Positions 2,038 to 38,619 of a DNA stretch of 41,862 bases are shown here, piece by piece. This stretch comes from an uncultured Erysipelotrichaceae bacterium (GTDB lineage: Bacteria; Bacillota_I; Bacilli_A; RF39; UBA660), in assembly GCA_902783185.1 (NCBI GenBank), contig CACZPQ010000031.1:1-41862 (forward strand), given 5' to 3'. How positions within the stretch are numbered: the first letter of the stretch is position 1; the number at the start of each line of letters is the position of its first letter. A program made the translations under genes and the position numbers. Under the pieces are notes generated by a model. It was not told the origin of the DNA. It saw nothing but the letters and a program-made list of their open reading frames with translations, and searched no databases.

Positions 2038-2065
2038 AAAAAAAGATATTACTAAAATAATATCT
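2038..2065 (-). terminator. Intrinsic terminator ending the five-gene operon
   Basis: Stem AGATATTA (2044-2051) / TAATATCT (2058-2065). On the minus strand a T-run follows (A-run 2038-2043 on plus). Lies just downstream of the 141-aa ORF. Confidence 0.6.
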
Positions 2066-2081
2066 ACATAATTAATTATTA

Positions 2082-2507
2082 TTATCTATGTTTATAATTA
2101 TCTTGTAAATCAACATATAATGATTTAATATTTTCTATTTTATTAACATAACTATTTGTTATTTCGTCATAAATCCATATACCAGATAAATCATCTAAAG
2201 GAATAGCACCAATTTGTCCGTCATGAACTTTTGAAAGAGATATTTCAAGAACAGGTCTTTTATCATAATAACATACGTTCCCACCAATAGACCAATAAAT
2301 AATATCTCCATGATTTTGTCCTCTTACACCATATTCCTTTGGTCTAACATAACCACAATTTATAATATCATTAATTTGATCAATTCCCGTTACTCTATAA
2401 GCATAACCTTCTTTTGATTTTAGTGATATTGGATTATCTTTACCCAAAGATAAATTGCATGGTGCAACACTATTTTTTACATTGTATAAATCACTGTAAT
2501 TATTCAT
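2082..2507 (-). CDS. Hypothetical 141-aa protein, last gene of the five-gene operon
   Basis: SD AAAGAGGATG precedes the ATG. The start overlaps the stop of the upstream gene by 8 nt. No TM segment and no motif I recognise. Confidence 0.7.
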   Translation of the reverse strand: MNNYSDLYNVKNSVAPCNLSLGKDNPISLKSKEGYAYRVTGIDQINDIINCGYVRPKEYGVRGQNHGDIIYWSIGGNVCYYDKRPVLEISLSKVHDGQIGAIPLDDLSGIWIYDEITNSYVNKIENIKSLYVDLQDNYKHR

Positions 2508-2790
2508 TTACATCCTCTTTATTAATAGCTTCAGTTAATTTTCGTTTAAATTCTATATCCTTATCTGATCTATAACCAATAAATAACACTTTTGCTATTT
2601 GATTATGATTAAATAATAAATTTTGATCTGATATAATAACTCCTTCTGGATACATACATCCACAATAATCATATACAGTATTTAGATCATTATTAGCTAC
2701 GGTATAAAAACCAGTAATCATTACTTCTTTTGTTCCATTGTTAAGCATAACAACACTTCCTATTGGTAATAATTTGTTAGCATCTTTCAT
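2500..2790 (-). CDS. DUF4176-like small protein (96 aa)
   Basis: LLPIGSVVML...EVMITG...YDYCGCMYPEG...LFNHNQIAKVLFIGY matches the LPxGSVV / DY-G-YPEG / FNHxxI pattern I recall for DUF4176. SD GGGAAGGA. ATGA start/stop overlap with the upstream gene. Confidence 0.7.
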   Translation of the reverse strand: MKDANKLLPIGSVVMLNNGTKEVMITGFYTVANNDLNTVYDYCGCMYPEGVIISDQNLLFNHNQIAKVLFIGYRSDKDIEFKRKLTEAINKEDVNE

Positions 2791-4082
2791 TCTTTATCAT
2801 TCCTTCCCACAAAACTATTTCTTAATTCTTCTAAACCACTTGCTGCTCTATCCGAAACATTATCTACAACTTTATCAATAAATCTTGTTTCATAAAAACC
2901 ACTATCTAATCCCGAATCAACATTTTCAACAATATCACCAAATGTAGGAATCAATTGTTCCTCAACAGCACTTATAGTATCACCAGCAAAACCAGTAATT
3001 CTTGAATTATCTACTCTATAACCTATCATATCAAATGCTCCATTCATTAAAATATTAAATGTTGCACCAATTGCTACTTTAGTAGAAGTCCTTAATCTAG
3101 AATCTCCATTAGCAATAGAATCAGAAATAGTATTAGCAGCACTTCCAATTGTATCTATAACATTTGCAGTGTGTCTTGATCCAGCCACAGCAGTTGATAT
3201 ATATCTAGCTGCTCTTTTTTGTTTATGTATTGTCAATGCCTCCCTAATTGATTGTCCTAATTCACTAAATGATGGTCTTATTGAATAAATACTTCGAATA
3301 CTTCCCAATGCTTCAACTGTTTTTGATCCAAAAATTCCAGCGGCAATCCATCTTGCAGATCCAGCAACTCCAGAAAGCACAATTCCGGCTTCCTCCGCAC
3401 CAGTAATATCTTTATTTTGTTTGTATGTATCTGAAGCTTGAATACCTATTCCCTCTGCCAGTCCTAAAGAACCATTTACTATTAAATTTATTGACATTGG
3501 TGCTGCAGTTCCACCACTAGCAATTAATGTTCCCGTTGCAACTGCTAATTCACCAACTATTGAACTAATACTTTCAATTCTATTTGCTACTTTACTATCA
3601 TATTTTAGATAAGAATTATCATTAACACTTTTTAATGGAGTATTATTATAAACATCATTTTCAAGATTATCTATAACATCTATTGATATAGCATCTTTTA
3701 CATTATCTTTAAATTTTTCACGCCAATCTAAAATTCTATTTTGATATTCTTTATTAACAATACCTACTATTTGTGATGTAACATAGCTTTCTCCTTCAAT
3801 TATTTTTCCACCAGCATATAAAAGCCCATCCCCCATATGTTCTCCAACATCTTGTACACCAGATAATACTTTTCCAGCACCTACAACAACAGTTGCTCCT
3901 GTTCTTTTTAATACATCTAACGCATCATTACCAAAATCATTAATATTGTAATTACTACTAGTATTAGTAGGTGCTGAATCAAATGAATAGTTTTCAATAT
4001 TGATATCTTTATTAATACTTATAGTATTGGCTAAATTAGATGGGATTTGTTCTGATTTTATAGTTTTTATATTATCAGACAT
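2787..4082 (-). CDS. Gly/Ala/Ser-rich 431-aa protein with glycine-zipper-like segments; function unknown (candidate membrane-active effector)
   Basis: Start placed at the ATG at 4082 (MSDNIKTIK), which has SD AGGTG 4-5 nt upstream. The ORF-track start at 4115 lies inside a hairpin. Segments include GATVVVGAGKVLSG, GTLIASGGTAAP..GSLGLAEGIGIQ and GIVLSGVAGSARWIAAGIFGS. No signal peptide and no LXG/WXG motif seen. Confidence 0.75.
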   Translation of the reverse strand: MSDNIKTIKSEQIPSNLANTISINKDINIENYSFDSAPTNTSSNYNINDFGNDALDVLKRTGATVVVGAGKVLSGVQDVGEHMGDGLLYAGGKIIEGESYVTSQIVGIVNKEYQNRILDWREKFKDNVKDAISIDVIDNLENDVYNNTPLKSVNDNSYLKYDSKVANRIESISSIVGELAVATGTLIASGGTAAPMSINLIVNGSLGLAEGIGIQASDTYKQNKDITGAEEAGIVLSGVAGSARWIAAGIFGSKTVEALGSIRSIYSIRPSFSELGQSIREALTIHKQKRAARYISTAVAGSRHTANVIDTIGSAANTISDSIANGDSRLRTSTKVAIGATFNILMNGAFDMIGYRVDNSRITGFAGDTISAVEEQLIPTFGDIVENVDSGLDSGFYETRFIDKVVDNVSDRAASGLEELRNSFVGRNDKE

Positions 4083-4173
4083 ACAACACCTACTCTCTTT
4101 ATTTAAGTATAGCATTATTTTATAATGCTTACAAACATTCTAAAGTATTGTTTACACTAAAAAAGATTATCAA

Positions 4174-4608
4174 CTATTTAGTTTCATAATCTTTTTTATC
4201 ATTATTTTGATTCTTAACAAATTTATAATATCTATCTTTACATAGTATAAAAAATAATACAAATGCTAATATTGAATAAGCTATATACCATACACTAGTC
4301 CATATTGTTGCTAAAGTTGATGTATAATTTGCTCCAAATAATAGAAATAAGTTAGATCCTAAATCCATTAATAATTGAAATGGAACAAATAAAAGTATTA
4401 CAAAACCAGCAACTAGTAACAATCTCCAAAATAATGAAAATAATTCAGATGAATTTTTACTTGTTATATATTCTCTTATATCTTTAAAAAAAACTTTCAT
4501 CCCTTTTACTTCTTTAACTGATGTTTCTTTTATTTCTTCAACTTGTTTTTCTTTAATTACTTCATTATTCATCTTAGGTAATTCAGGTATTTCATTATTA
4601 TCATTCAT
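4174..4608 (-). CDS. Small membrane protein (144 aa): charged N-terminus followed by about 3 TM helices
   Basis: SD AAGAGGAA. The start overlaps the stop of the upstream gene by 8 nt. Hydrophobic stretches LFWRLLLVAGFVILLFVPFQLL, LFLLFG...LATIW and VWYIAYSILAFVLFFILC. Confidence 0.75.
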   Translation of the reverse strand: MNDNNEIPELPKMNNEVIKEKQVEEIKETSVKEVKGMKVFFKDIREYITSKNSSELFSLFWRLLLVAGFVILLFVPFQLLMDLGSNLFLLFGANYTSTLATIWTSVWYIAYSILAFVLFFILCKDRYYKFVKNQNNDKKDYETK

Positions 4609-6442
4609 TTATATTCCTCTTTTCTATAGTTACTTTATTGATATTAATTTTATAATCTAAATCAAATTTATCAATATAAGTATAATCTTTAGTTTTTATT
4701 TCATTAGTTTTAAATCTAGAATAAATTACAGTATTCTTATCTTTATTAATTATTATATCCCTTGTATCAATGATTATTTCTGGACTTTCATTATTAACTA
4801 TTTTTATTGTTTTATCTTTAGCACTATCAATTGGTTTTGCAATAAACTTTGGTGAGAATAAAACATTAATACCTTTTTTAACATTAGCAGTAATAACCCT
4901 ATAATTATTAGATTTATTAATTAAGTAAGGTGCTATTATAGATGAAGTATGAATAAAGTTATCATTACCTAAACTATCAAAATCATTTGTACTAAAATAT
5001 AATTTGTAATTATACTTTAATACCATTTTATTATTAATATTAATTATAGTTTTAATAGTATTAATAATAGATTTAATAAATTCTTCCTTACTTGTAAAAA
5101 ATATATCTTTAAATATTGTATTTTTAATATCTTTATTATCTTCAAGTTCTAATAATTTTTTTACTTTTGTATAACACTCTTCATATAAAGGTAAAAAATT
5201 ATTAGTAATATTTAATAGATTAATTATTTCATTAGCAGGTAAATTTTCAAAATCATTAATACCTTGTATCATATCAAATAATTCTCTATAAAATGAATTA
5301 TATAATATTAAGGCATTTCTTTCTTCATCATTTAAATTAGTATTAAATTGCTTAGTTAAACTATTATTCACATCCTCAGTAGATGTATTATAATCTTCAA
5401 TTTTTTCTGTTATTTCTTTTTTACATCTTAATACATTTCTTTCAATATCATATTCTTTATTACTTTTAAAATTATTTAAATATTCACATAATCTAAATTC
5501 ATTAATATTTTCTTTTTGATTATATTTATTATTAATAAATTCTTTATATTTTGCTTCAAAATTATCATCATATATACATTCATATGTACTTTGATTATCA
5601 ATTGAATCAAATTTCTTTTTTAAATTTATAATTTTAAATCTTTTCTTAGATAATAATTCTTTCATAAAATCTATTTTAGTAACAACTAATCTCATTTCTT
5701 CATCAATATCATCATTATATCTAAGAGCATACATATAACTATTATTAAGTTCTAAGGATTTATTTAACCCCCATGCTTCATTTATTAATTCTTTTAAAAC
5801 ATCTTCCTTAGGTAATTTCTTTTTATACTCAGATATCTTAGAATTAATATCACTTTCTAATTCTAAATTTGTTTTAAATACCTTGTTTTCTTCTTCAATT
5901 GAAGGATGAGTATTATTAACATTATATATATCAACTAAATTTTGTAAATCTAAATAATATCTTTGTAATTCTTTTTCTTTATTAAATAGATTTTTAACAT
6001 ATTTTTCTTTAATATCTTTTTCTTGATAATAATGATCCATCAATTCTTCAGCAACTATTAAATATCTTTTAGTAGCAGATAATTTTAAATTACTCTTTTC
6101 TCTTTTATCATGTAATTCAATATTAAACATTTCATTATCAGTCATAACATGATTATTCCTAATATATAATACTTCTGGATTTGGTACCTCATAATTATTT
6201 AGTTTTAAAGATACATTATATTTTTTTCCATTTAATTTATACCATTGATATCTCTTTAAGAATAAATCTAAATCAATATCATTATGAAAAGATACTACTC
6301 TTTCTGTAATACCATATTTATTATCTATATAAGAATAATTAACGCCTATTTCGTTATTATTCTTATATATAAAGGGATGAACAGTTTTAGAATTATATCC
6401 ATGCTTTTTTATTATCTTTAAAGCAGATTCAATACTAATCAT
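4601..6442 (-). CDS. Hypothetical 613-aa soluble protein (Asn/Lys/Glu/Ile-rich), first gene of the operon
   Basis: Strong SD GGGGAGGT 7 nt before the ATG. A long uninterrupted ORF in AT-rich DNA. No TM segment, signal peptide or motif I can name. Confidence 0.8.
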   Translation of the reverse strand: MISIESALKIIKKHGYNSKTVHPFIYKNNNEIGVNYSYIDNKYGITERVVSFHNDIDLDLFLKRYQWYKLNGKKYNVSLKLNNYEVPNPEVLYIRNNHVMTDNEMFNIELHDKREKSNLKLSATKRYLIVAEELMDHYYQEKDIKEKYVKNLFNKEKELQRYYLDLQNLVDIYNVNNTHPSIEEENKVFKTNLELESDINSKISEYKKKLPKEDVLKELINEAWGLNKSLELNNSYMYALRYNDDIDEEMRLVVTKIDFMKELLSKKRFKIINLKKKFDSIDNQSTYECIYDDNFEAKYKEFINNKYNQKENINEFRLCEYLNNFKSNKEYDIERNVLRCKKEITEKIEDYNTSTEDVNNSLTKQFNTNLNDEERNALILYNSFYRELFDMIQGINDFENLPANEIINLLNITNNFLPLYEECYTKVKKLLELEDNKDIKNTIFKDIFFTSKEEFIKSIINTIKTIININNKMVLKYNYKLYFSTNDFDSLGNDNFIHTSSIIAPYLINKSNNYRVITANVKKGINVLFSPKFIAKPIDSAKDKTIKIVNNESPEIIIDTRDIIINKDKNTVIYSRFKTNEIKTKDYTYIDKFDLDYKININKVTIEKRNINE

Positions 6443-6468
6443 TAATATCTACCTCCCCAATTATTTAT

Positions 6469-6477
6469 ATTATAGCA
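6469..6477 (-). promoter_or_regulatory. Extended -10 promoter element (TGCTATAAT on the minus strand) for the five-gene operon
   Basis: The plus strand reads ATTATAGCA at 6469-6477, which is TGCTATAAT on the minus strand. It lies about 27 nt upstream of the 6442 start. The -35 is weak. Confidence 0.5.
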
Positions 6478-6514
6478 AAAAATAACATGTTTTAAAATAT
6501 ATAAAGTTTATATA

Positions 6515-7201: not shown

Positions 7202-7720
7202 CTATTTTTTTAATACTAATTTAGAATTTTTTGCCTGTGATATAAAATCATATATATCACAACCATAATTAAGGTTATTATATTCATATATTGACAAATT
7301 TTTATCTTCATCAGTTTGAGTAGATATATAATATTCAAATAAAGCATCTAAACTACTAAATGTATGAATTCCTCTAATAGGTCTAAATGTTGTTTCAATC
7401 CAATAGTATTTATTGTTATCGTAATAAACTAATAATGAATGATTTCTTAATGAAGTATAGTATGTTTTTACATTATAACCATGAGTTTTTAACCAATCCC
7501 TCATTAGTTCATTTTGATCATAACATATACCACATTTACTAATTAATAATTCTTGTGGACTTTGAAACTTATAATTTCTAAATAATTCTTCCATATAATA
7601 TTGTTCAACAGTATTATATCTTAATAACACTTTATTATCCTTATTAATAAAACCATACTTAATATTATTTCTAGTAAATAAATATAAATCATTAGGATTT
7701 TTAATATCTTCATAATCCAT
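7202..7720 (-). CDS. Transglutaminase-like (papain-fold) domain protein, tentative
   Basis: 172 aa. CGICYDQNELMRDWLKTHGYNV ... NHSLLVYY ... YWIETT is spaced like the Cys-His-Asp/Glu core of transglutaminase-like enzymes. Motif-level evidence only. Confidence 0.5.
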   Translation of the reverse strand: MDYEDIKNPNDLYLFTRNNIKYGFINKDNKVLLRYNTVEQYYMEELFRNYKFQSPQELLISKCGICYDQNELMRDWLKTHGYNVKTYYTSLRNHSLLVYYDNNKYYWIETTFRPIRGIHTFSSLDALFEYYISTQTDEDKNLSIYEYNNLNYGCDIYDFISQAKNSKLVLKK

Positions 7721-7834: not shown

Positions 7835-7945
7835 GTGAGAACATATAAAGTTAATCTTCCTGAAGGAAAGAAAAAAGCCTTTGGTGCAAGAAGAGGAGTT
7901 AAAGTAAAACTAGTTAGTAAAAAGAATACTAAAAAGAATAAATAA
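7835..7945 (+). CDS. Small, highly basic 36-aa protein (MRTYKVNLPEGKKKAFGARRGVKVKLVSKKNTKKNK)
   Basis: Absent from the ORF track because it is too short. GGAGGG SD (7823-7828) lies 6 nt before the GTG. Extended -10 promoter upstream and a hairpin terminator immediately downstream. Confidence 0.45.
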   Translation: MRTYKVNLPEGKKKAFGARRGVKVKLVSKKNTKKNK

Positions 7946-15151: not shown

Positions 15152-15397
15152 ATGAAAAATATAAATAAAGAAATTATTAATGATGATGAATTTGATTTAA
15201 TATGTAAATATATAAAAATTAGATATGAATCAAATGTAAGTCAAAGAGAGTTAGCTAAAAGAATTGGAATAGCGCAATCTACCATAGCAAGGATGGAAAA
15301 AAATTTACATTCCATGTCTATTGGTAATTTTACCAAGCTATTATCATCACTTGGATATAAATTAGAAATTTTAAAACAGGAGGAAAAAAATGAATAA
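15152..15397 (+). CDS. XRE-family helix-turn-helix transcriptional regulator (81 aa)
   Basis: HTH SQRELAKRIGIAQSTIARMEKN. SD AAGGAG. Confidence 0.85.
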   Translation: MKNINKEIINDDEFDLICKYIKIRYESNVSQRELAKRIGIAQSTIARMEKNLHSMSIGNFTKLLSSLGYKLEILKQEEKNE

Positions 15398-16247
15398 CAA
15401 TAAATTAGAAACTTTAACAAATTTATTTGAAAATAATGAAATTAGAAGTATATGGGATAGTGAAAAAGAAGAATACTATTTTAGTGTTGTTGATGTTATT
15501 AATGCACTAGCAAATCCAAAGGAACCAAGAAAATATTGGAATGATTTAAAAAAGAAACTGACAAACGAAGGAAGTGAGTTGTCCGAAAAAATCGGACAAC
15601 TAAAATTAAGATCTAATAAAGATGGCAAAATGTATAAAACAGACACATTAGATACTGCTGGAATTTTTAGACTTATTGAATCTGTTCCGTCACCTAAGGC
15701 TGAACCATTTAAAGTATGGCTTTCTAATTTAGGTAAAGAAAGAATTGATGAGGTTTTTGATCCAGAAATTGCTGCTAATAGGGTTGTAAATTATTACCGA
15801 GCAAAAGGATATAGTGATGAATGGATTAAGCAAAGACTAATTGGTATTGTCGATAGATTTAAATTAACTGATATTTGGAAAGATGGTGGAATAGATAAAC
15901 CAATTGAATATGCATTACTTACAAATGAAATATATAAAACTTGGTCTGATATGAAAGCAAATGAATATAAAGCATTTAAGGGCTTAAGAAAAGAATCATT
16001 AAGAGATAATATGACTGATATTGAACTTGCATTAACTAATCTTGGTGAGTTAACTACTAGAGATATTGCCGAAAATGAACACCCAAAAGGGCTAAAAGAA
16101 AACATGAAAGTGGCCAAACGTGGTGGCAAAGTAGCAAAAGATGCTAGAGATTCGTATGAAAAAGCAACAAAAAAATCAGCTATTTCAAATACGAATATGC
16201 TAAATTATAAATATTTAAATGATAAAGAAAAATTAAACAATAAATAA
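15390..16247 (+). CDS. Bro-N domain protein (phage antirepressor-like), 285 aa
   Basis: FENNEIRSIWDSEKEEYYFSVVDVINAL and IESVPSPKAEPFKVWL match Bro-N family hallmarks. The start overlaps the XRE stop by 8 nt. Confidence 0.8.
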   Translation: MNNNKLETLTNLFENNEIRSIWDSEKEEYYFSVVDVINALANPKEPRKYWNDLKKKLTNEGSELSEKIGQLKLRSNKDGKMYKTDTLDTAGIFRLIESVPSPKAEPFKVWLSNLGKERIDEVFDPEIAANRVVNYYRAKGYSDEWIKQRLIGIVDRFKLTDIWKDGGIDKPIEYALLTNEIYKTWSDMKANEYKAFKGLRKESLRDNMTDIELALTNLGELTTRDIAENEHPKGLKENMKVAKRGGKVAKDARDSYEKATKKSAISNTNMLNYKYLNDKEKLNNK

Positions 16248-30357: not shown

Positions 30358-32388
30358 TTATCTATTACTTAATACTGATTTAGAAAATATTATAGCTAAA
30401 ACTAACACTATTAATAATAATAAATAACCTTCAAAACCATAATGTTTACTATTACTCTCTTCCTTAATATCTTTTTTAGATTCTTCAATTATTCTTTCTT
30501 TAACCTTATCAGTATTATTATTACTATTTTCATTAGTTTTACTGTTAGTTACTTCTTTATCTTCATCTTCTTCATCTACATCATAATCATTATCATCATA
30601 TGAAGTAGTTGTTTTACTACTTATACCATTTTCTCTAGATGATTTAATATTATCTTCAGTACTATTAATAACTATATTATTATTATTTTCATCTAGAATA
30701 TTATTTATAATAATAACTTTATTATTAGTCTTTGCTTCATTATTAATGATAATATTTTCTTTATTATTTATTTCATCATTCTTTTTATTATCAATTGTTA
30801 TATTATTGTTTTCTTCTTCATTCTTGTTTATTATTTCTTCTTTATTGTCATTTTCTTCTTTATCATTATTATCTATTATTTCTTTTTGATTATCTTTTTC
30901 ATCATCAGTATTTTCTTCATTTTTAGTATCTTCGATAATACCAGATACTTTAACAAATATTGGACTTTCACTAACATTAACACTTACCGCATTATTATTA
31001 ATAGTTAAATTTGATGTTATTCCTAAGTCTTCTTTATTCTTTAATTCTGTTAATGAAGCATTTTTAAAATTACCAATATTTAAAATATAATTATTAATTA
31101 CTTTATTACTTTCAGTAGGTGACCAAAGAACATAACATATATCATTTCCTTTAACATATTTATAAATATACATTTCATTATCTTCCTTGATTACTTCGGA
31201 TAATTTATATCCTTTTAATGTATTTTTTAACGTATTAACACCATACCATGATGATTTTTTTACAGTTCCTTCAGATACTTTTGTTGCAAGTCCAGATGTT
31301 GAATATTGTGTAGTATTACTGGATGGTCCATCATTTAATGCATCATATACTGTCATTCTATCTAAGCCAATTCTATCTCCTATTAAATACTCACGAATAA
31401 TCCAATCTCTTTGTGCATCTTCAGATGGTGCAGCATGTTTAGTTGAACCTAAGTTAGTATCCCAACCAAACTCTGTTATCCATATTTCTTTATCTGAAGC
31501 ATTAGTATTTCTCCAATCAATTATTTTTTTAGCATCCTCAACAAAAGTCGAATTTTCAGGAGAATGTACACCAGCATATTGGTGGTAGTTAATAACATCA
31601 AGTGGTAGTTTCTTATCAGTTCTATTGATATTTGCCCATTCTTGCATTTCAGTTAACCACTTAACCATGGTTGAACCACCGGCCATACCACCCATAACTA
31701 ATTTTGAATTTTTATCAGCTTGTTTAACACCATAAACATCACCAAGTTTACCTTCATGTCCATCATAATCTGCAGATAACATAGCAGCTAGTTCTGTAGA
31801 ATTAAACTGTGCATCAGGTCCTTGCCATGTTTTATCTGGTTCATTCCAATCTTCATAATATGTTATATAACCAAGTCCAGTTTTATATGAGTCATTTGGA
31901 TCAAGATTTAGTTTTTCTATTGGTACCACCGTATGTCCATATCTAGCTGCATAATTATATAAATAATTTGCATGTATTTTATAACTCATAGGGTCAGTAG
32001 TTGAATCACCTTTCATTACTGGTTTTTCATTTCTATTTCTGTTAAATACAGCTTGTTCACCCATTTGAATACATGGTAATATTGTTATTCCATGTTTATG
32101 TAAATCTTCATAATAACCATCAAAATCCCACCAAGAAAATCTTTCAAAATACATTTGTTTATTGGGAGTTATTGACCAACCAAAATTATGATACTCTCTT
32201 ACTACTCCACCAGCATATAAGATATCTCTTGGAACATCAATGTGACCATTCATTCCAATTTTTTGATCAATAGTTAAATCACTTTTTGAAACATTAAAAT
32301 CATTAGTATTACCAAAACTAAAATTATTACTAATTGTTAACAAACCTATAATAAATAAAAATATAAATATTTCCTTTATTCTTTTCAT
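30358..32388 (-). CDS. Secreted clan GH-A-like (beta/alpha)8 glycoside hydrolase with a low-complexity stalk and C-terminal TM anchor
   Basis: Start moved to the ATG at 32388 (MKRIKEIFIFLFIIGLL, signal peptide) after SD AAGGGG. YYEDWNEPD (acid/base NEP) and IWITEFGW (nucleophile) motifs. About 170 aa of N/D/E/K-rich low complexity. Final TM helix LLLLIVLVLAIIF. Confidence 0.78.
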   Translation of the reverse strand: MKRIKEIFIFLFIIGLLTISNNFSFGNTNDFNVSKSDLTIDQKIGMNGHIDVPRDILYAGGVVREYHNFGWSITPNKQMYFERFSWWDFDGYYEDLHKHGITILPCIQMGEQAVFNRNRNEKPVMKGDSTTDPMSYKIHANYLYNYAARYGHTVVPIEKLNLDPNDSYKTGLGYITYYEDWNEPDKTWQGPDAQFNSTELAAMLSADYDGHEGKLGDVYGVKQADKNSKLVMGGMAGGSTMVKWLTEMQEWANINRTDKKLPLDVINYHQYAGVHSPENSTFVEDAKKIIDWRNTNASDKEIWITEFGWDTNLGSTKHAAPSEDAQRDWIIREYLIGDRIGLDRMTVYDALNDGPSSNTTQYSTSGLATKVSEGTVKKSSWYGVNTLKNTLKGYKLSEVIKEDNEMYIYKYVKGNDICYVLWSPTESNKVINNYILNIGNFKNASLTELKNKEDLGITSNLTINNNAVSVNVSESPIFVKVSGIIEDTKNEENTDDEKDNQKEIIDNNDKEENDNKEEIINKNEEENNNITIDNKKNDEINNKENIIINNEAKTNNKVIIINNILDENNNNIVINSTEDNIKSSRENGISSKTTTSYDDNDYDVDEEDEDKEVTNSKTNENSNNNTDKVKERIIEESKKDIKEESNSKHYGFEGYLLLLIVLVLAIIFSKSVLSNR

Positions 32389-32471
32389 ACAAAACCCCTT
32401 CTTTTGAGTAAATATAATACATCTTTTTTTAAAAAAAGTCAAATTATTAACTATACACAATAAAAAAAGAT

Positions 32472-33845
32472 TTATTTATTAAATCTTTTTCTACTATTAA
32501 TAAAATTATATATAGTTAAACAAATACACCCAAATATGGATACAATATATAATAAAATATAAAAAGTAATGTTGTTTCCTGTTTGAGGATTTTCAATGTT
32601 TTTTATTTCTTCATTTATATCTTCGTTTGTATTCTCTTCAATAATTCCTATATCATCAGTTTTAGGTGCTATATTATTTATTTCTTTTTCTATAAATACA
32701 GCATCATCGTATAAAACTCTATTACCATTACTATATTTAATTGTTTTTTTGTCTAATAATTCATAATTATTATCATCTATAACTAGTTCATATTCCTCAT
32801 TATATTTTAATCCATAAAAATGGATAATATATTCAGATGATACATTATTATAAATATATATACCATTAATAATATCATTATTAGATTTTAAATATACATT
32901 TTTCACGTTTAATGAATTATTATTAATATCTTTTGGATATAACTCATATTCATACATATTAGAATAATCATATAGATTATTCATTAATTCTAGTATTGGT
33001 TTAAAATAATGATATGAAAATGATAATTTAGAATAATTATAATTATTCTCTATCTCTTTAAATTTATTATTAGCAACATCTATACCATCATTATAAAAAG
33101 TTATTGCATCAGTTACTTCATGTGGTCCAGGCACTTGAAACTCTGCTATGTTTTCTATTGGTTTATTATAAGCTTTAGCAATTGCTACTTCTTCTTGAAT
33201 ATTATTTACCATATTGTTTTTAGTATAATTCATTAGTTGTACATAATCACTTCCATCTTTGATTAAAGCATCTAACAAATCTTGATCTAAATTATTTAAC
33301 CATACAGGTATACAAACAACATATTCTAAATCAAAAGAATTAGCATATTCTTTTGCTTCTTTCATTGCATTAACAAAACTATTAAATAAACTTTTTCTTT
33401 CACTTGTAGATAATGAAGAATATATTGGTAGAGAATGAAATTCAGAATCTATTGTTAATCCTTTTATTTTATTATTTGCAGTTTCATTATAACGCTTTAT
33501 TTCATAAATAAATTCTTTTATTCTAGATAGATTTTCACTTTGATCTTCATAATTTTCATCATATACTAAATAAGTACTAATATTATTTTCTTTAGCAAAT
33601 TCAAATAGTAATTGTTTTTCATAATCAATTCTTGTATCTAAATTATCAGTACCTACATATGCATATATCTTATTTATATTTAATTTATTTATAATATCAT
33701 TATATGCAGAATAATTAATATCATCAACTTCCCACATATAAATAGAAGTTTTATTGTTTAAACTATCAGCATTTACATTTGAATTAAATATAAACTCTAT
33801 TGATATAATAAGTAACAATGATAATATTATTTTAAAATACTTCAT
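32472..33845 (-). CDS. Secreted protein with signal peptide and C-terminal TM anchor; possible TIM-barrel hydrolase-like domain (uncertain)
   Basis: 457 aa. Signal MKYFKIILSLLLIISIEFIFNSNVNA. C-terminal TM helix ITFYILLYIVSIFGCICLTIY followed by a basic tail. Domain assignment is not supportable from motifs alone. Confidence 0.65.
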   Translation of the reverse strand: MKYFKIILSLLLIISIEFIFNSNVNADSLNNKTSIYMWEVDDINYSAYNDIINKLNINKIYAYVGTDNLDTRIDYEKQLLFEFAKENNISTYLVYDENYEDQSENLSRIKEFIYEIKRYNETANNKIKGLTIDSEFHSLPIYSSLSTSERKSLFNSFVNAMKEAKEYANSFDLEYVVCIPVWLNNLDQDLLDALIKDGSDYVQLMNYTKNNMVNNIQEEVAIAKAYNKPIENIAEFQVPGPHEVTDAITFYNDGIDVANNKFKEIENNYNYSKLSFSYHYFKPILELMNNLYDYSNMYEYELYPKDINNNSLNVKNVYLKSNNDIINGIYIYNNVSSEYIIHFYGLKYNEEYELVIDDNNYELLDKKTIKYSNGNRVLYDDAVFIEKEINNIAPKTDDIGIIEENTNEDINEEIKNIENPQTGNNITFYILLYIVSIFGCICLTIYNFINSRKRFNK

Positions 33846-36669: not shown

Positions 36670-36743
36670 TGGCAGGGGCACAAGGATTCGAACCCAGACG
36701 AACGGTTTTGGAGACCGTCATACTACCATTATATTATGCCCCT
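36670..36743 (-). tRNA. tRNA-Trp: tRNA-Trp (anticodon CCA), 3' CCA encoded
   Basis: The reverse complement reads AGGGGCATAATATAATGGTAGTATGACGGTCTCCAAAACCGTTCGTCTGGGTTCGAATCCTTGTGCCCCTGCCA. It folds by hand as a cloverleaf with a 7-bp acceptor stem, anticodon stem ACGGT/ACCGT, loop CTCCAAA and T-loop TTCGAAT (one U-U mismatch in the T stem). The acceptor ends resemble Bacillus tRNA-Trp. Confidence 0.92.
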
Positions 36744-36823: not shown

Positions 36824-37672
36824 CTATTTTATACTTTCTAAGTAATTATTATTAAATGTATATTTAACAACATTTAACTTTTTACTATATTTAGAAATCT
36901 TATCTTCTTTTTTATAATCAGATATTTCTTTATTATTTAATACATTATATAATTTATTATCTTTAATATATCCTTCAGTAGTGGTAATAACTACCTTATT
37001 ATCTTTTTCTTCAATATTAGTAATTTCTTTAATTATTTTAATTCCACTTGTTGATAAAGATGTACTTATAAACATATCTTTAGCTTTAATATATTTATAT
37101 TTAAATCCATTATGTTTAAAATCACTATACTCTAAAGTATCATTAAATAATTCCTTATATGCTCTACCTAATAGTTCGGCATCAAAATAACTTGAACTAT
37201 CATCAGTTATAATATAATCTTTATTAATTAATTGATATGCTAAATATTCTTTTAATTCTTTAGATAAATTGCCATTATAATAATCAGATAAATACTCACA
37301 TTTAGTATCAATATTTAAATTATCTAATAAATAAGAATATTTATTAACTAATTCATCAATTTTTACTTTATTATCATCTTTATTCTCTGGAGCAACATCA
37401 TTATTAACTGGATTTTCTTTCTTTTGAATTTTTATATCATAACTAAAGTATCCATCATTATATAAATGAATCATTCCAAACACACCTGCAGTTATTAGAC
37501 CTACTATAATGATAAATTCAATAAATATAATAATAGATTTATTTCTTAATCTTTTTTTATAATATTTAACAGCACTAGATGCTGCTTCTTTGTCTACTCT
37601 TTCTTTTATATATTTATCTATTTGATCCTTATAATCATTGATATTAAAATCGTCTTTATTTGTTTTTGCCAT
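36824..37672 (-). CDS. Bitopic membrane protein: short cytoplasmic N-terminus, TM helix, about 210-aa extracytoplasmic domain; function unknown
   Basis: 282 aa. TM helix IIIFIEFIIIVGLITAGVFGMI. A terminator hairpin lies at its 3' end (36802-36829). Confidence 0.7.
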   Translation of the reverse strand: MAKTNKDDFNINDYKDQIDKYIKERVDKEAASSAVKYYKKRLRNKSIIIFIEFIIIVGLITAGVFGMIHLYNDGYFSYDIKIQKKENPVNNDVAPENKDDNKVKIDELVNKYSYLLDNLNIDTKCEYLSDYYNGNLSKELKEYLAYQLINKDYIITDDSSSYFDAELLGRAYKELFNDTLEYSDFKHNGFKYKYIKAKDMFISTSLSTSGIKIIKEITNIEEKDNKVVITTTEGYIKDNKLYNVLNNKEISDYKKEDKISKYSKKLNVVKYTFNNNYLESIK

Positions 37673-37770
37673 ATAAAAACCTCCCTTGATAATATAATTA
37701 TAACATAATTTGAAATAATAATAAAATTATTTAAGAATATGTTATAATTTATATAATAGAGGTGGTAAAT

Positions 37771-38619
37771 GTGAAAAATTGTCCTAATTGTGGTGCATTA
37801 ATAAATGATGGTCAAACATCATGTAGTATTTGTAATACACCAATTACAAACAATAATATAAATAATACTAATAACGAACAACAAACTGTATTTGTTAATA
37901 GTATTAATAATCAAGATGATAATATTAATAAAATATATGAACCATTAAATCAAGTAGAAGAAAGTAATAATGCAACAGAAATACTTAATACAGATGATAG
38001 TAAGAAAAATATAATGACAGATATACTTAAAGAACAAAAAGAAAAAAATAATAGTATACAAAAAAAAGATGATAGTGTTAAAGCTGCAATATTATCAATA
38101 GTTGTTGTAATAATAATTATACTAATTGGTTATTTTGGAGTTAAGTTTGGGTTTAATAAAATTGATGATGGAAAAGATAAAATATTAAGTAATGTTGTTA
38201 CCCAAGCCAATAGTTATACTAACATTGTAAAGAATTATATGAAAAAATTTGATTATAAAGCTAATAGGGTAGTTTTAACTGGATACTATGCTAAGAAAAG
38301 AACATATAAATTTTTATCTATACCACTATCAGGTAAATGTATATTAAAAGAAGGAAAATGGAGTGGCTCAGATGATGATGAAATATCTTGTGAAACATTC
38401 TTTAATGATATAAATAATAATTATTGTACAAGTGTTCCTTGTGATATACCAAGTGATGCTGAAATATATCTTAAAGAAACATATGAAACAATGGAAATAG
38501 ATGGAGTAGAACAAACAATTACAACAGGAACTATTTCTGATGGTTCAACTCTTACATATGATGATATTACTTGTACATTATCTAACAATAATTATACTTG
38601 TAATTACATAGAAAAATAG
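37771..38619 (+). CDS. Zinc-ribbon, TM helix and Cys-containing ectodomain protein; function unknown
   Basis: I prefer the GTG at 37771 (MKNCPNCGA), 5 nt after SD AGAGGTGG. The ORF-track start at 37762 sits inside the SD. CPNCG...CSIC zinc ribbon. TM helix ILSIVVVIIIILIGYFGV. Six Cys in the C-terminal domain. Confidence 0.72.
   Translation: MKNCPNCGALINDGQTSCSICNTPITNNNINNTNNEQQTVFVNSINNQDDNINKIYEPLNQVEESNNATEILNTDDSKKNIMTDILKEQKEKNNSIQKKDDSVKAAILSIVVVIIIILIGYFGVKFGFNKIDDGKDKILSNVVTQANSYTNIVKNYMKKFDYKANRVVLTGYYAKKRTYKFLSIPLSGKCILKEGKWSGSDDDEISCETFFNDINNNYCTSVPCDIPSDAEIYLKETYETMEIDGVEQTITTGTISDGSTLTYDDITCTLSNNNYTCNYIEK

Follow-up and report, generated by a model that had tools for sequence, protein, structure and literature searches.

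Introduction

The export of polymorphic toxins by a secretion system of type VIIb (T7SSb) with the help of a DUF4176 chaperone is already known as a type of system. The DUF4176 proteins LtcA and LtcB of Streptococcus intermedius serve T7SSb toxins as chaperones, each specific for its toxin, and their binding site is a disordered, amphipathic region in the middle of the toxin, and it was proposed without proof that this chaperone-bound region is a membrane-translocation module (PMC12478183). LcpE has a stabilising effect on TelE, in its middle and C-terminal regions (bioRxiv 10.64898/2026.03.12.711312), and in S. suis the DUF4176 genes lie downstream of LXG toxin genes, their products binding the pre-toxin and the C-terminal region of a pore-forming toxin (PMC12482557). 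A class of small DUF4176 proteins (70-130 amino acids, aa) is reported to be found beside toxin genes only rarely, and its client was left open (PMC12478183). Here we describe a three-gene cassette that encodes a member of this small class, located on the minus strand of a 41,862-nucleotide stretch of DNA (the window) from an uncultured Erysipelotrichaceae bacterium (contig CACZPQ010000031.1).

The cassette carries the genes for a 431-aa protein, a 96-aa DUF4176 protein and a 141-aa soluble protein, and is preceded by genes for a 613-aa protein and a 144-aa membrane protein. The initial annotation took all five genes for a candidate toxin/effector-immunity system that matches no described system. 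This was too strong, given that a toxin followed by DUF4176 and an immunity-type gene is the LXG arrangement of S. suis (PMC12482557), and that DUF4176 proteins are toxin-specific chaperones (PMC12478183). What does appear from the sequence to be genuinely unmatched in described systems is a toxin-family protein that has neither a detectable LXG domain nor a C-terminal toxin domain.

Three elements are new: a shared module, unannotated, that unites a family of over 200 clusters from uncultured Bacilli, a short form of the family that is conserved and consists of this module alone, and a strict pairing of the short form with the small DUF4176 class, the client of which was an open question. Our best explanation of the locus as a whole, including the origin of the region from two units, is that the cassette encodes a toxin-family protein and its DUF4176 chaperone, that the former would be exported by a T7SSb, and that it would act on the membrane of a competitor. 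Judging from sequence comparisons and from analogy with the chaperones described above, we put the probability of this explanation at roughly 60%.

Results and Discussion

The 431-aa protein and its toxin family

A word-indexed homology search with the 431-aa protein returned the protein itself alone, a result that proved misleading given that HMMER, run exhaustively over 1.84 billion cluster representatives, recovered 204 relatives at E ≤ 1e-3, 124 of them at E ≤ 1e-10. The 613-aa and 141-aa proteins have 59 and 60 homologues, respectively, and the earlier description of the products of this region as orphan proteins does not hold. The closest relatives of the 431-aa protein (392-448 aa) align with it from end to end at 34-39% identity, while most of the others are 600-1250 aa long and have in common with it only the region corresponding to residues ~50-400. 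When the C-termini of 78 long members were scanned, six were found to carry ADPrib_exo_Tox, three DUF3626, two EndoU and two Transglut_core. Given that the long members diverge beyond the shared module, where they carry varied toxin domains, the family displays the signature of polymorphic toxins, and on the basis of its sequence we assign the 431-aa protein to that family. The protein itself ends approximately 30 residues past the shared module.

The longest open reading frame (ORF) of this gene begins at 4115 and would encode 442 aa. We favoured the 431-aa start at 4082 because the ATG at 4115 falls within the -10 element of a promoter-like site; its alternative at 4082 carries a Shine-Dalgarno (SD) site and was the start chosen by gene callers on eight metagenome contigs.

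The architecture of the family recalls that of the LXG toxins (TelA-E, TspA, EsxX, YxiD, LXG1-CT3), in that an N-proximal helical module is combined with variable C-terminal domains, ADP-ribosyltransferase (ART) and EndoU among them, and in that the long members have downstream immunity genes and neighbours that include essC, WXG100-like and DUF4176 genes. Some members of the family also possess a helical N-terminal extension of ~200-260 aa that is LXG-like in appearance; a profile of this extension (A4) detected no LXG chain in the PDB.

The shared module is all-helical, rich in Gly, Ala and Ser, and approximately 350 aa in length, and it matched nothing in Pfam, NCBIfam, PHROG or the PDB sequences, even when searched as a profile (A3). 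An AlphaFold2 model built with a 79-sequence alignment predicted residues 50-265 to form a bundle of long helices, at a confidence (pLDDT) of 85-97. The label of a glycine-zipper-rich protein, which the initial annotation had given to the 431-aa product, was not borne out, as the motif counts are at the level expected from composition: GxxxG occurs 3 times, compared with 3.9±1.8 in shuffled sequences, and small-xxx-small-xxx-small occurs 11 times, compared with 10.0±3.3. The comparison with the zipper toxins (TspA/TsaI-DUF443, TelE/TipE-DUF5085 and EsxX/ExiAB+ExiCD) is nonetheless a relevant one, since these possess small, non-enzymatic, helical regions rich in Gly and Ala, and TelE and TspA need a DUF4176 chaperone. 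The 431-aa protein differs from them in that its zipper motifs are not enriched and in having no sequence similarity to them or to the solved complexes, and the cassette differs in containing no DUF443, DUF5085 or polytopic immunity gene.

The shared module contains a nearly invariant D-G-x-x-W-x-G-G-K motif that recalls W-x-G, and that in the window protein reads DGLLYAGGK (residues 85-93), with Y in place of W. The repeats around this motif gave non-significant matches (E 0.4) to the amphipathic lipid-binding repeats of alpha-synuclein, and neither the motif nor these matches are evidence of homology.

Pairing with a small DUF4176 protein

The 96-aa protein had been called DUF4176-like in the initial annotation, and this call proved correct: it matches PF13780 with E=1.4e-25 and 89.6 bits (cut-off 25) over profile positions 1-74 of 74. 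It also matches PHROG 14657 (E=6.8e-21) and the solved small DUF4176 protein in PDB entry 9dcs (E=8.1e-13). It thus shares the PF13780 domain with the known DUF4176 chaperones (LtcA/LtcB, LcpE of S. gallolyticus, DUF4176^CT of S. suis and SACOL2601 of S. aureus), and its gene likewise adjoins, and is translationally coupled with, that of a toxin-family protein, in the same order, toxin then DUF4176, as in S. suis (PMC12482557).

The difference is that the 96-aa protein belongs to the small class, whose gene here, in the window as in six other loci, strictly adjoins that of a short protein of the toxin family. In all six of these loci (L011, L026, L027, L028, L032 and the window species' own copies, as defined by gene call), the short-form gene is directly followed by a gene for a DUF4176 protein of 95-102 aa, usually overlapping it or a few bases away, so that the short forms are strictly paired with small DUF4176 genes. 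The DUF4176 partners of the short forms are 56-68% identical to that of the window and those of the long forms 36-55%; the corresponding identity for the toxin-family proteins is 32-38%.

Linkage of the family to type VII secretion

The comparison covered 33 distinct family loci, from GTDB genomes and from metagenomes. A gene for an EssC-like FtsK/SpoIIIE protein of ~1.5 thousand aa was found within the fetched flank in 13 of the 33, and a DUF4176 gene in 20. In a metagenome-assembled genome (MAG) of Bacilli from rabbit gut, two paralogues of the 431-aa protein are encoded 1-6 kb downstream of a gene for an EssC-like FtsK/SpoIIIE protein of 1519 aa and genes for WXG100-like small helical proteins, and the paralogue of the two that is an ADP-ribosyltransferase is followed by DUF4176 and then by an ADP-ribosylglycohydrolase, which is the expected type of immunity protein. 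A 188-aa protein encoded in the essC locus of a relative matches WXG100 (E=1.2e-5). The 431-aa family is therefore linked to both EssC-like and DUF4176 genes, in agreement with the connection between DUF4176 and the T7SSb toxins of Firmicutes to which the initial annotation had pointed.

Four loci (L035, L036, L037 and L022) contain arrays of three or four paralogous long toxins, each followed by a small gene that is presumably for immunity. One or two DUF4176 genes head the whole array (L036, L037), an arrangement that would fit a chaperone whose recognition target is the shared module and not the variable domain.

Two evolutionary units beside typA

The five minus-strand ORFs were confirmed by an ORF listing at the lengths and positions given in Table 1, as was the identity of the flanking genes, which are typA and a DUF308/HdeD-like gene. 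All three of the start/stop overlaps that had been claimed are real (4601/4608, 2787/2790 and 2500/2507), and every one of the starts has its own purine-rich SD site ahead of it (GGGGAGG, AAGAGGAA, AGTAGGTG, GGAAGGA and AAGAGGA). The extended -10 promoter proposed at 6469-6477 is also present, as TGCTATAAT with TTTAAA 16 nt upstream, and so is the proposed terminator, as an A/T-rich hairpin followed by T7 that has a predicted folding energy (RNAfold) of -7.3 kcal/mol and fails the G+C-rich rule of a generic terminator scan. A scan of the window with Rfam gave one tRNA, far from the locus, as the sole match.

On these grounds alone it was reasonable to regard the five genes as one toxin/effector-immunity system, with the 613-aa protein as adaptor or toxin, the 144-aa protein conferring immunity, and the 431-aa protein as a Gly-zipper effector acting with DUF4176 and a cytosolic partner. 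The genes are adjacent and on the same strand, with one strong promoter-like site upstream, one terminator downstream and three overlaps between them, and this layout, which was the basis for describing the region as a self-contained operon, stands. What does not stand is its integrity, given that a T-run with a weak hairpin and a second promoter-like site, belonging to the cassette itself, separate genes 2 and 3. The hairpin at this position is weak enough (-3.2 kcal/mol) for read-through to be plausible. Comparative genomics, however, breaks the unit at exactly the same point.

In three relatives (L006, L007 and L009, with 613-aa genes 81%, 67% and 56% identical to that of the window), the order is DUF308 (divergent), 613-aa gene, membrane-protein gene, typA, with a spacer of only 76-120 bp between the membrane-protein gene and typA, and the genes for the 431-aa, DUF4176 and 141-aa proteins are absent from the locus. 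Conversely, a 613-family gene occurs in none of the 33 other loci that encode a member of the 431-aa family, and in L011, a genome from the same lineage, the cassette itself occupies another chromosomal site, flanked by a GH3 gene and an amidase gene; the lineage of this genome was assigned from its Amidase_3 protein, which matches that of L007 with E=2.7e-84. The co-occurrence of the five genes elsewhere, which the initial annotation had set as a check, accordingly fails in the three relatives and in the 33 other loci. Since the pair is found in relatives without the cassette, and the cassette family is found elsewhere without a 613-family gene, the region consists of two independent evolutionary units, a conserved pair and a mobile three-gene cassette, and that all five genes constitute one system is highly improbable.

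Alignment of the junctions revealed how the two units came to be adjacent. Both ends of the insert align to the single spacer that in the relatives contains the terminator and the typA promoter. The left end keeps the T-run and weak hairpin, corresponding to the terminator that in the relatives directly precedes the typA promoter, and at the right end the T-run is retained together with the typA promoter, so that the ancestral typA promoter follows the insert. The insert of ~2.1 kb is flanked by an imperfect direct repeat of 12-14 nt (ATAATCTTTTTT at 4159-4170 and TAATATCTTTTTTT at 2038-2051), which may have arisen by target-site duplication or may mark a recombination event at the terminator. 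The cassette is thus inserted at the terminator of the conserved pair, and among the relatives compared this is the case in the window species only.

Table 1. Features of the region in window coordinates
Feature	Position	Strand	Description
Unit 1	4174-6496	minus	613-aa and 144-aa gene pair with its own promoter-like site
Promoter-like site of 613-aa gene	6469-6496	minus	TTTAAA-16-TGCTATAAT, extended -10; consensus match only
613-aa gene (gene 1)	4601-6442	minus	soluble protein of a lineage-restricted family; member of the conserved pair
144-aa gene (gene 2)	4174-4608	minus	membrane protein with 2-3 hydrophobic segments (residues 54-91, 101-125); start overlaps stop of 613-aa gene
Left junction of insertion	4140-4173	minus	weak hairpin and T6, containing ATAATCTTTTTT (4159-4170)
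Unit 2	~2038-4170	minus	three-gene cassette (431-aa, DUF4176, 141-aa), ~2.1 kb
Promoter-like site of cassette	4106-4134	minus	TTGTAA-17-TGCTATACT, extended -10, just inside left junction
431-aa gene (gene 3)	2787-4082	minus	short-form toxin-family protein; shared helical module (residues ~50-400), no enzymatic C-terminal domain
96-aa gene (gene 4)	2500-2790	minus	small DUF4176 protein of the Ltc/Lcp-type chaperone family; start overlaps stop of 431-aa gene as ATGA
141-aa gene (gene 5)	2082-2507	minus	soluble protein of a widespread uncharacterised family; start overlaps stop of DUF4176 gene
Right junction/terminator	2038-2065	minus	A/T-rich 8-9 bp hairpin and T7, containing TAATATCTTTTTTT (2038-2051)

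The homologues of the 613-aa protein are ~600-620 aa long, and 44-99% identical to it, and the MAGs that encode them are labelled Bacilli or Firmicutes bacterium. Searches with the protein, even as a 28-sequence profile (A6), found nothing in Pfam, NCBIfam, PHROG, PADLOC or the PDB sequences. The pair as a whole has no counterpart among known families, structures or defence systems, DUF4176 being the only match when all five proteins were scanned with Pfam, NCBIfam, PHROG and PADLOC. Homologues of the 144-aa protein (136-157 aa) overlap or follow the 613-aa gene in L006, L007 and L009, and its gene is absent from all of the other toxin loci examined. The pair has a G+C content of 16-21%, its carriers being a very AT-rich lineage of uncultured gut and rumen Bacilli, and in the relatives examined it always lies between the DUF308 gene and typA. 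This constant site beside typA and the presence of the pair in toxin-free genomes argue against the roles of adaptor or toxin and of dedicated immunity protein that had been attributed to the 613-aa and 144-aa proteins: the pair is conserved in genomes that have no cassette, and the membrane-protein gene is kept with the 613-aa gene where the toxin is absent.

The window contains other features outside the two units. A 172-aa gene at 7202-7720 (minus strand), which has weak transglutaminase/N-acetyltransferase-like (Cys-protease fold) matches (E 0.002-0.015), is missing from this position in L006, L007 and L009, a second presence/absence difference, and a homologue of it lies ~3 kb from the cassette in L011. 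A very basic 36-aa ORF (MRTYKVNLPEGKKKAFGARRGVKVKLVSKKNTKKNK; 7835-7945, plus strand) was called as a gene and is conserved, being nearly identical in three relatives that have it in the same place beside the DUF308 gene. Elsewhere are a Bro-N domain gene (15390-16247), a tRNA (36673-36743) and, at 30358-33845 (minus strand) and 36824-38619, four sizeable ORFs (700, 457, 282 and 285 aa) with no Pfam match at E ≤ 1e-5.

The cassette as a possible intracellular module

An origin of the cassette from a phage or plasmid was considered and rejected, as neither the 431-aa nor the 141-aa protein had a tblastn match in collections of phages and plasmids. Another proposal is that the 431-aa and DUF4176 proteins act within the producer without being secreted, for example as a module for stress, abortive infection or addiction that is associated with the membrane, with DUF4176 holding a membrane-active protein in check. 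The orphan position of the cassette, away from secretion genes, and its mobility between sites would be in keeping with such a role, as would the match of its DUF4176 protein to a PHROG family and the occurrence of DUF4176 in prophage-containing records. On the other hand, a PADLOC scan was negative, neither the 50,697 phage records nor the 72,556 plasmid records contained a homologue of the 431-aa protein, and the long members of the family are classical secreted polymorphic toxins encoded beside essC. We therefore consider an intracellular module improbable.

The 141-aa protein

Homologues of the 141-aa protein range from 127 to 246 aa and include members from Saccharibacteria and Magasanikbacteria. 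The family has ten invariant positions (N12, Y37, R38, Q44, D47, I48, R55, W72, G75 and L107). A homologue of the 141-aa protein is encoded by the third gene in two of the six other short-form loci, those of L028 (137 aa, with an overlapping start) and L026 (110 aa); of the remaining four, two have a different gene at this position (L011 and L027), one reaches the end of its contig (L032), and one is a copy without a start in the DNA read. The homologues from Saccharibacteria and Magasanikbacteria (L029-L031) have an N-terminal extension of ~100 aa and lie in housekeeping surroundings.

An AlphaFold2 model of the protein (pLDDT 85.5) was compared with the PDB by Foldseek, and the top matches were mostly to ART-fold proteins (Tpt1/KptA, TreTu, DarT and Scabin), all non-significant, with E 0.3-5 and TM scores of 0.2-0.4. 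In a library of viral structures the model matched one protein of an uncultured phage (A0A6J5R0C8; 1090 aa) with E=1.7e-6. The conserved Y-R, W-S and L-E positions of the family are suggestive only of an ART/Tpt1 fold, and no signal was obtained in Pfam, in the PDB sequences (profile A2), or by hhalign against the ART domains of the toxin family itself.

Given these observations we considered whether the toxin might be split, with the 431-aa protein serving as a carrier and the 141-aa protein as a separately encoded, ART/Tpt1-like enzymatic cargo that is exported by the T7SSb in place of a fused C-terminal domain. The long members do fuse the same module to enzymes that act in the cytoplasm, most often ADP-ribosyltransferases, and to this can be added the enzyme-like character of the invariant polar residues (N12, Y37, R38, Q44, D47, R55 and W72), the dominance of ART-fold proteins among the weak matches, the occurrence of the fold as a domain of the phage protein, and the translational coupling of the 141-aa gene to DUF4176 in the window and in L028. 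The matches to the PDB are nevertheless non-significant throughout and profile similarity to ART domains is lacking, no immunity gene follows the 141-aa gene, and two of the other cassettes dispense with it. Moreover, its lone homologues in Bacillota and Saccharibacteria are in housekeeping contexts, which would be unlikely for a toxin. A split toxin seems to us quite unlikely.

For the 141-aa protein we consider a role in immunity or as a neutraliser in the cytoplasm to be the most likely one, by analogy. A soluble protein is plausible in this role because ExiAB, a soluble pair, sequesters EsxX in the producer (PMC12744356). A more novel possibility would be an ART-like cargo or an accessory enzyme.

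Proposed mechanism and points that weigh against it

By analogy with LtcA/LtcB, LcpE and the S. suis DUF4176 proteins, the small DUF4176 protein would bind the amphipathic helices of the 431-aa protein in the cytoplasm of the producer, and would thereby keep it stable, free from aggregation and off the producer's own membrane prior to export. A T7SSb encoded elsewhere in the genome would then export the 431-aa protein, and the freed helical module would engage the membrane of a competitor, where it would be a small toxin perturbing that membrane or else a translocation module. The 141-aa protein may neutralise the 431-aa protein or accompany it.

Several observations weigh against this mechanism, and the first of these concern export. 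No T7SSb gene (essC, esxA, essB and others) is present within the 41.8 kb of the window or within a further 5.7 kb past typA (L001), and no homologues of the T7SS accessory proteins from related loci were found among the window ORFs; the initial annotation had likewise noted that no EssC, WXG100 or LXG is visible there, and none was found. A comparison of the housekeeping genes in the fetched flanks with those of T7SS-bearing MAGs gave no usable overlap with the window organism. In contrast to the LXG toxins, LXG (PF04740) was undetected both in the 431-aa protein (E ≤ 1) and in the 78 long relatives (E ≤ 0.01 or 0.001), as was WXG100, and the window protein lacks the N-terminal helical extension (~200 aa) of some other family members. 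The cassette and the window also lack the Lap/WXG100-like partner genes that the essC loci of relatives do have. A recognisable export domain is accordingly lacking from the 431-aa protein.

Other observations concern the activity of the protein and its neutralisation. The 431-aa protein has no recognisable toxin domain (Pfam, E ≤ 1), and the combination of a C-terminal toxin and a downstream immunity gene that characterises LXG systems is found in the long relatives and not in the window protein. It contains no strongly hydrophobic segment, with no 19-residue window at a Kyte-Doolittle value of ≥1.6, the helices predicted for residues 268-431 are of low confidence in the AlphaFold2 model, and a Foldseek comparison of this model with the PDB found nothing at E < 1. 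The cassette has no membrane-type immunity gene. The 141-aa gene, our candidate for this function, is absent from the cassettes of L011 and L027, and its homologues occur alone elsewhere, following ftsX or a DUF218 gene, or amid housekeeping genes in Saccharibacteria.

A precedent for toxin-family proteins of this kind is provided by the PT-TG pre-toxin domain proteins and the PT-TG singletons (PMC13483458), which neighbour T7SSb genes, lack any domain recognisable as one for trafficking or toxicity, and had escaped standard annotation. The present family is distinct from these, as PT-TG (PF14449) gave no match to the 431-aa protein at E ≤ 1 and none in its relatives, and as its module is predicted with confidence to be a long helical bundle and not a short, disordered loop motif.

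The missing secretion genes, LXG/WXG and enzymatic domains and Lap-like partners, together with the species-specific presence of the cassette, would also be consistent with an inert orphan module, that is, an LXG-less toxin fragment with its chaperone that serves as a recombination reservoir or is decaying after transfer, and is not exported. The short forms as a group argue otherwise. At least seven distinct cassettes encode short forms (415-448 aa) at 34-38% identity, all with intact ORFs, starts and SD sites of their own, and conserved C-terminal tails, and the conservation of a full-length subfamily of this kind points to purifying selection rather than decay. In addition, the cassette of the window has promoter-like and terminator elements and translationally coupled genes, and it does not follow a full-length toxin gene in the way usual for recombination reservoirs. 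We regard an inert module as unlikely on balance, and an exported toxin-family protein with its chaperone as the better explanation.

One may speculate, as a possibility that we ourselves think doubtful, that the ~350-aa module is a hitherto unrecognised, LXG-independent domain for T7SSb delivery or for translocation across membranes, and the natural client of the small DUF4176 proteins. The short form, as this module on its own, would then be either a membrane-active effector that stands alone or a carrier bringing the separate, ART-like 141-aa protein into target cells, the two together being a split polymorphic toxin.

Conclusions

For annotators, the locus is a case in which five tightly packed, co-directional genes are two evolutionary units, with the 613-aa protein standing outside the weapon. 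For the biology of these organisms, the 431-aa protein adds an unannotated toxin family of more than 200 clusters in the very AT-rich Bacilli of gut and rumen, in which interbacterial antagonism has hardly been studied. Finally, the pairing of the small DUF4176 class with a protein that comprises little more than the shared module offers a minimal two-protein system for the questions of what the client of this class is and of whether the region bound by the chaperone is a membrane-translocation module.

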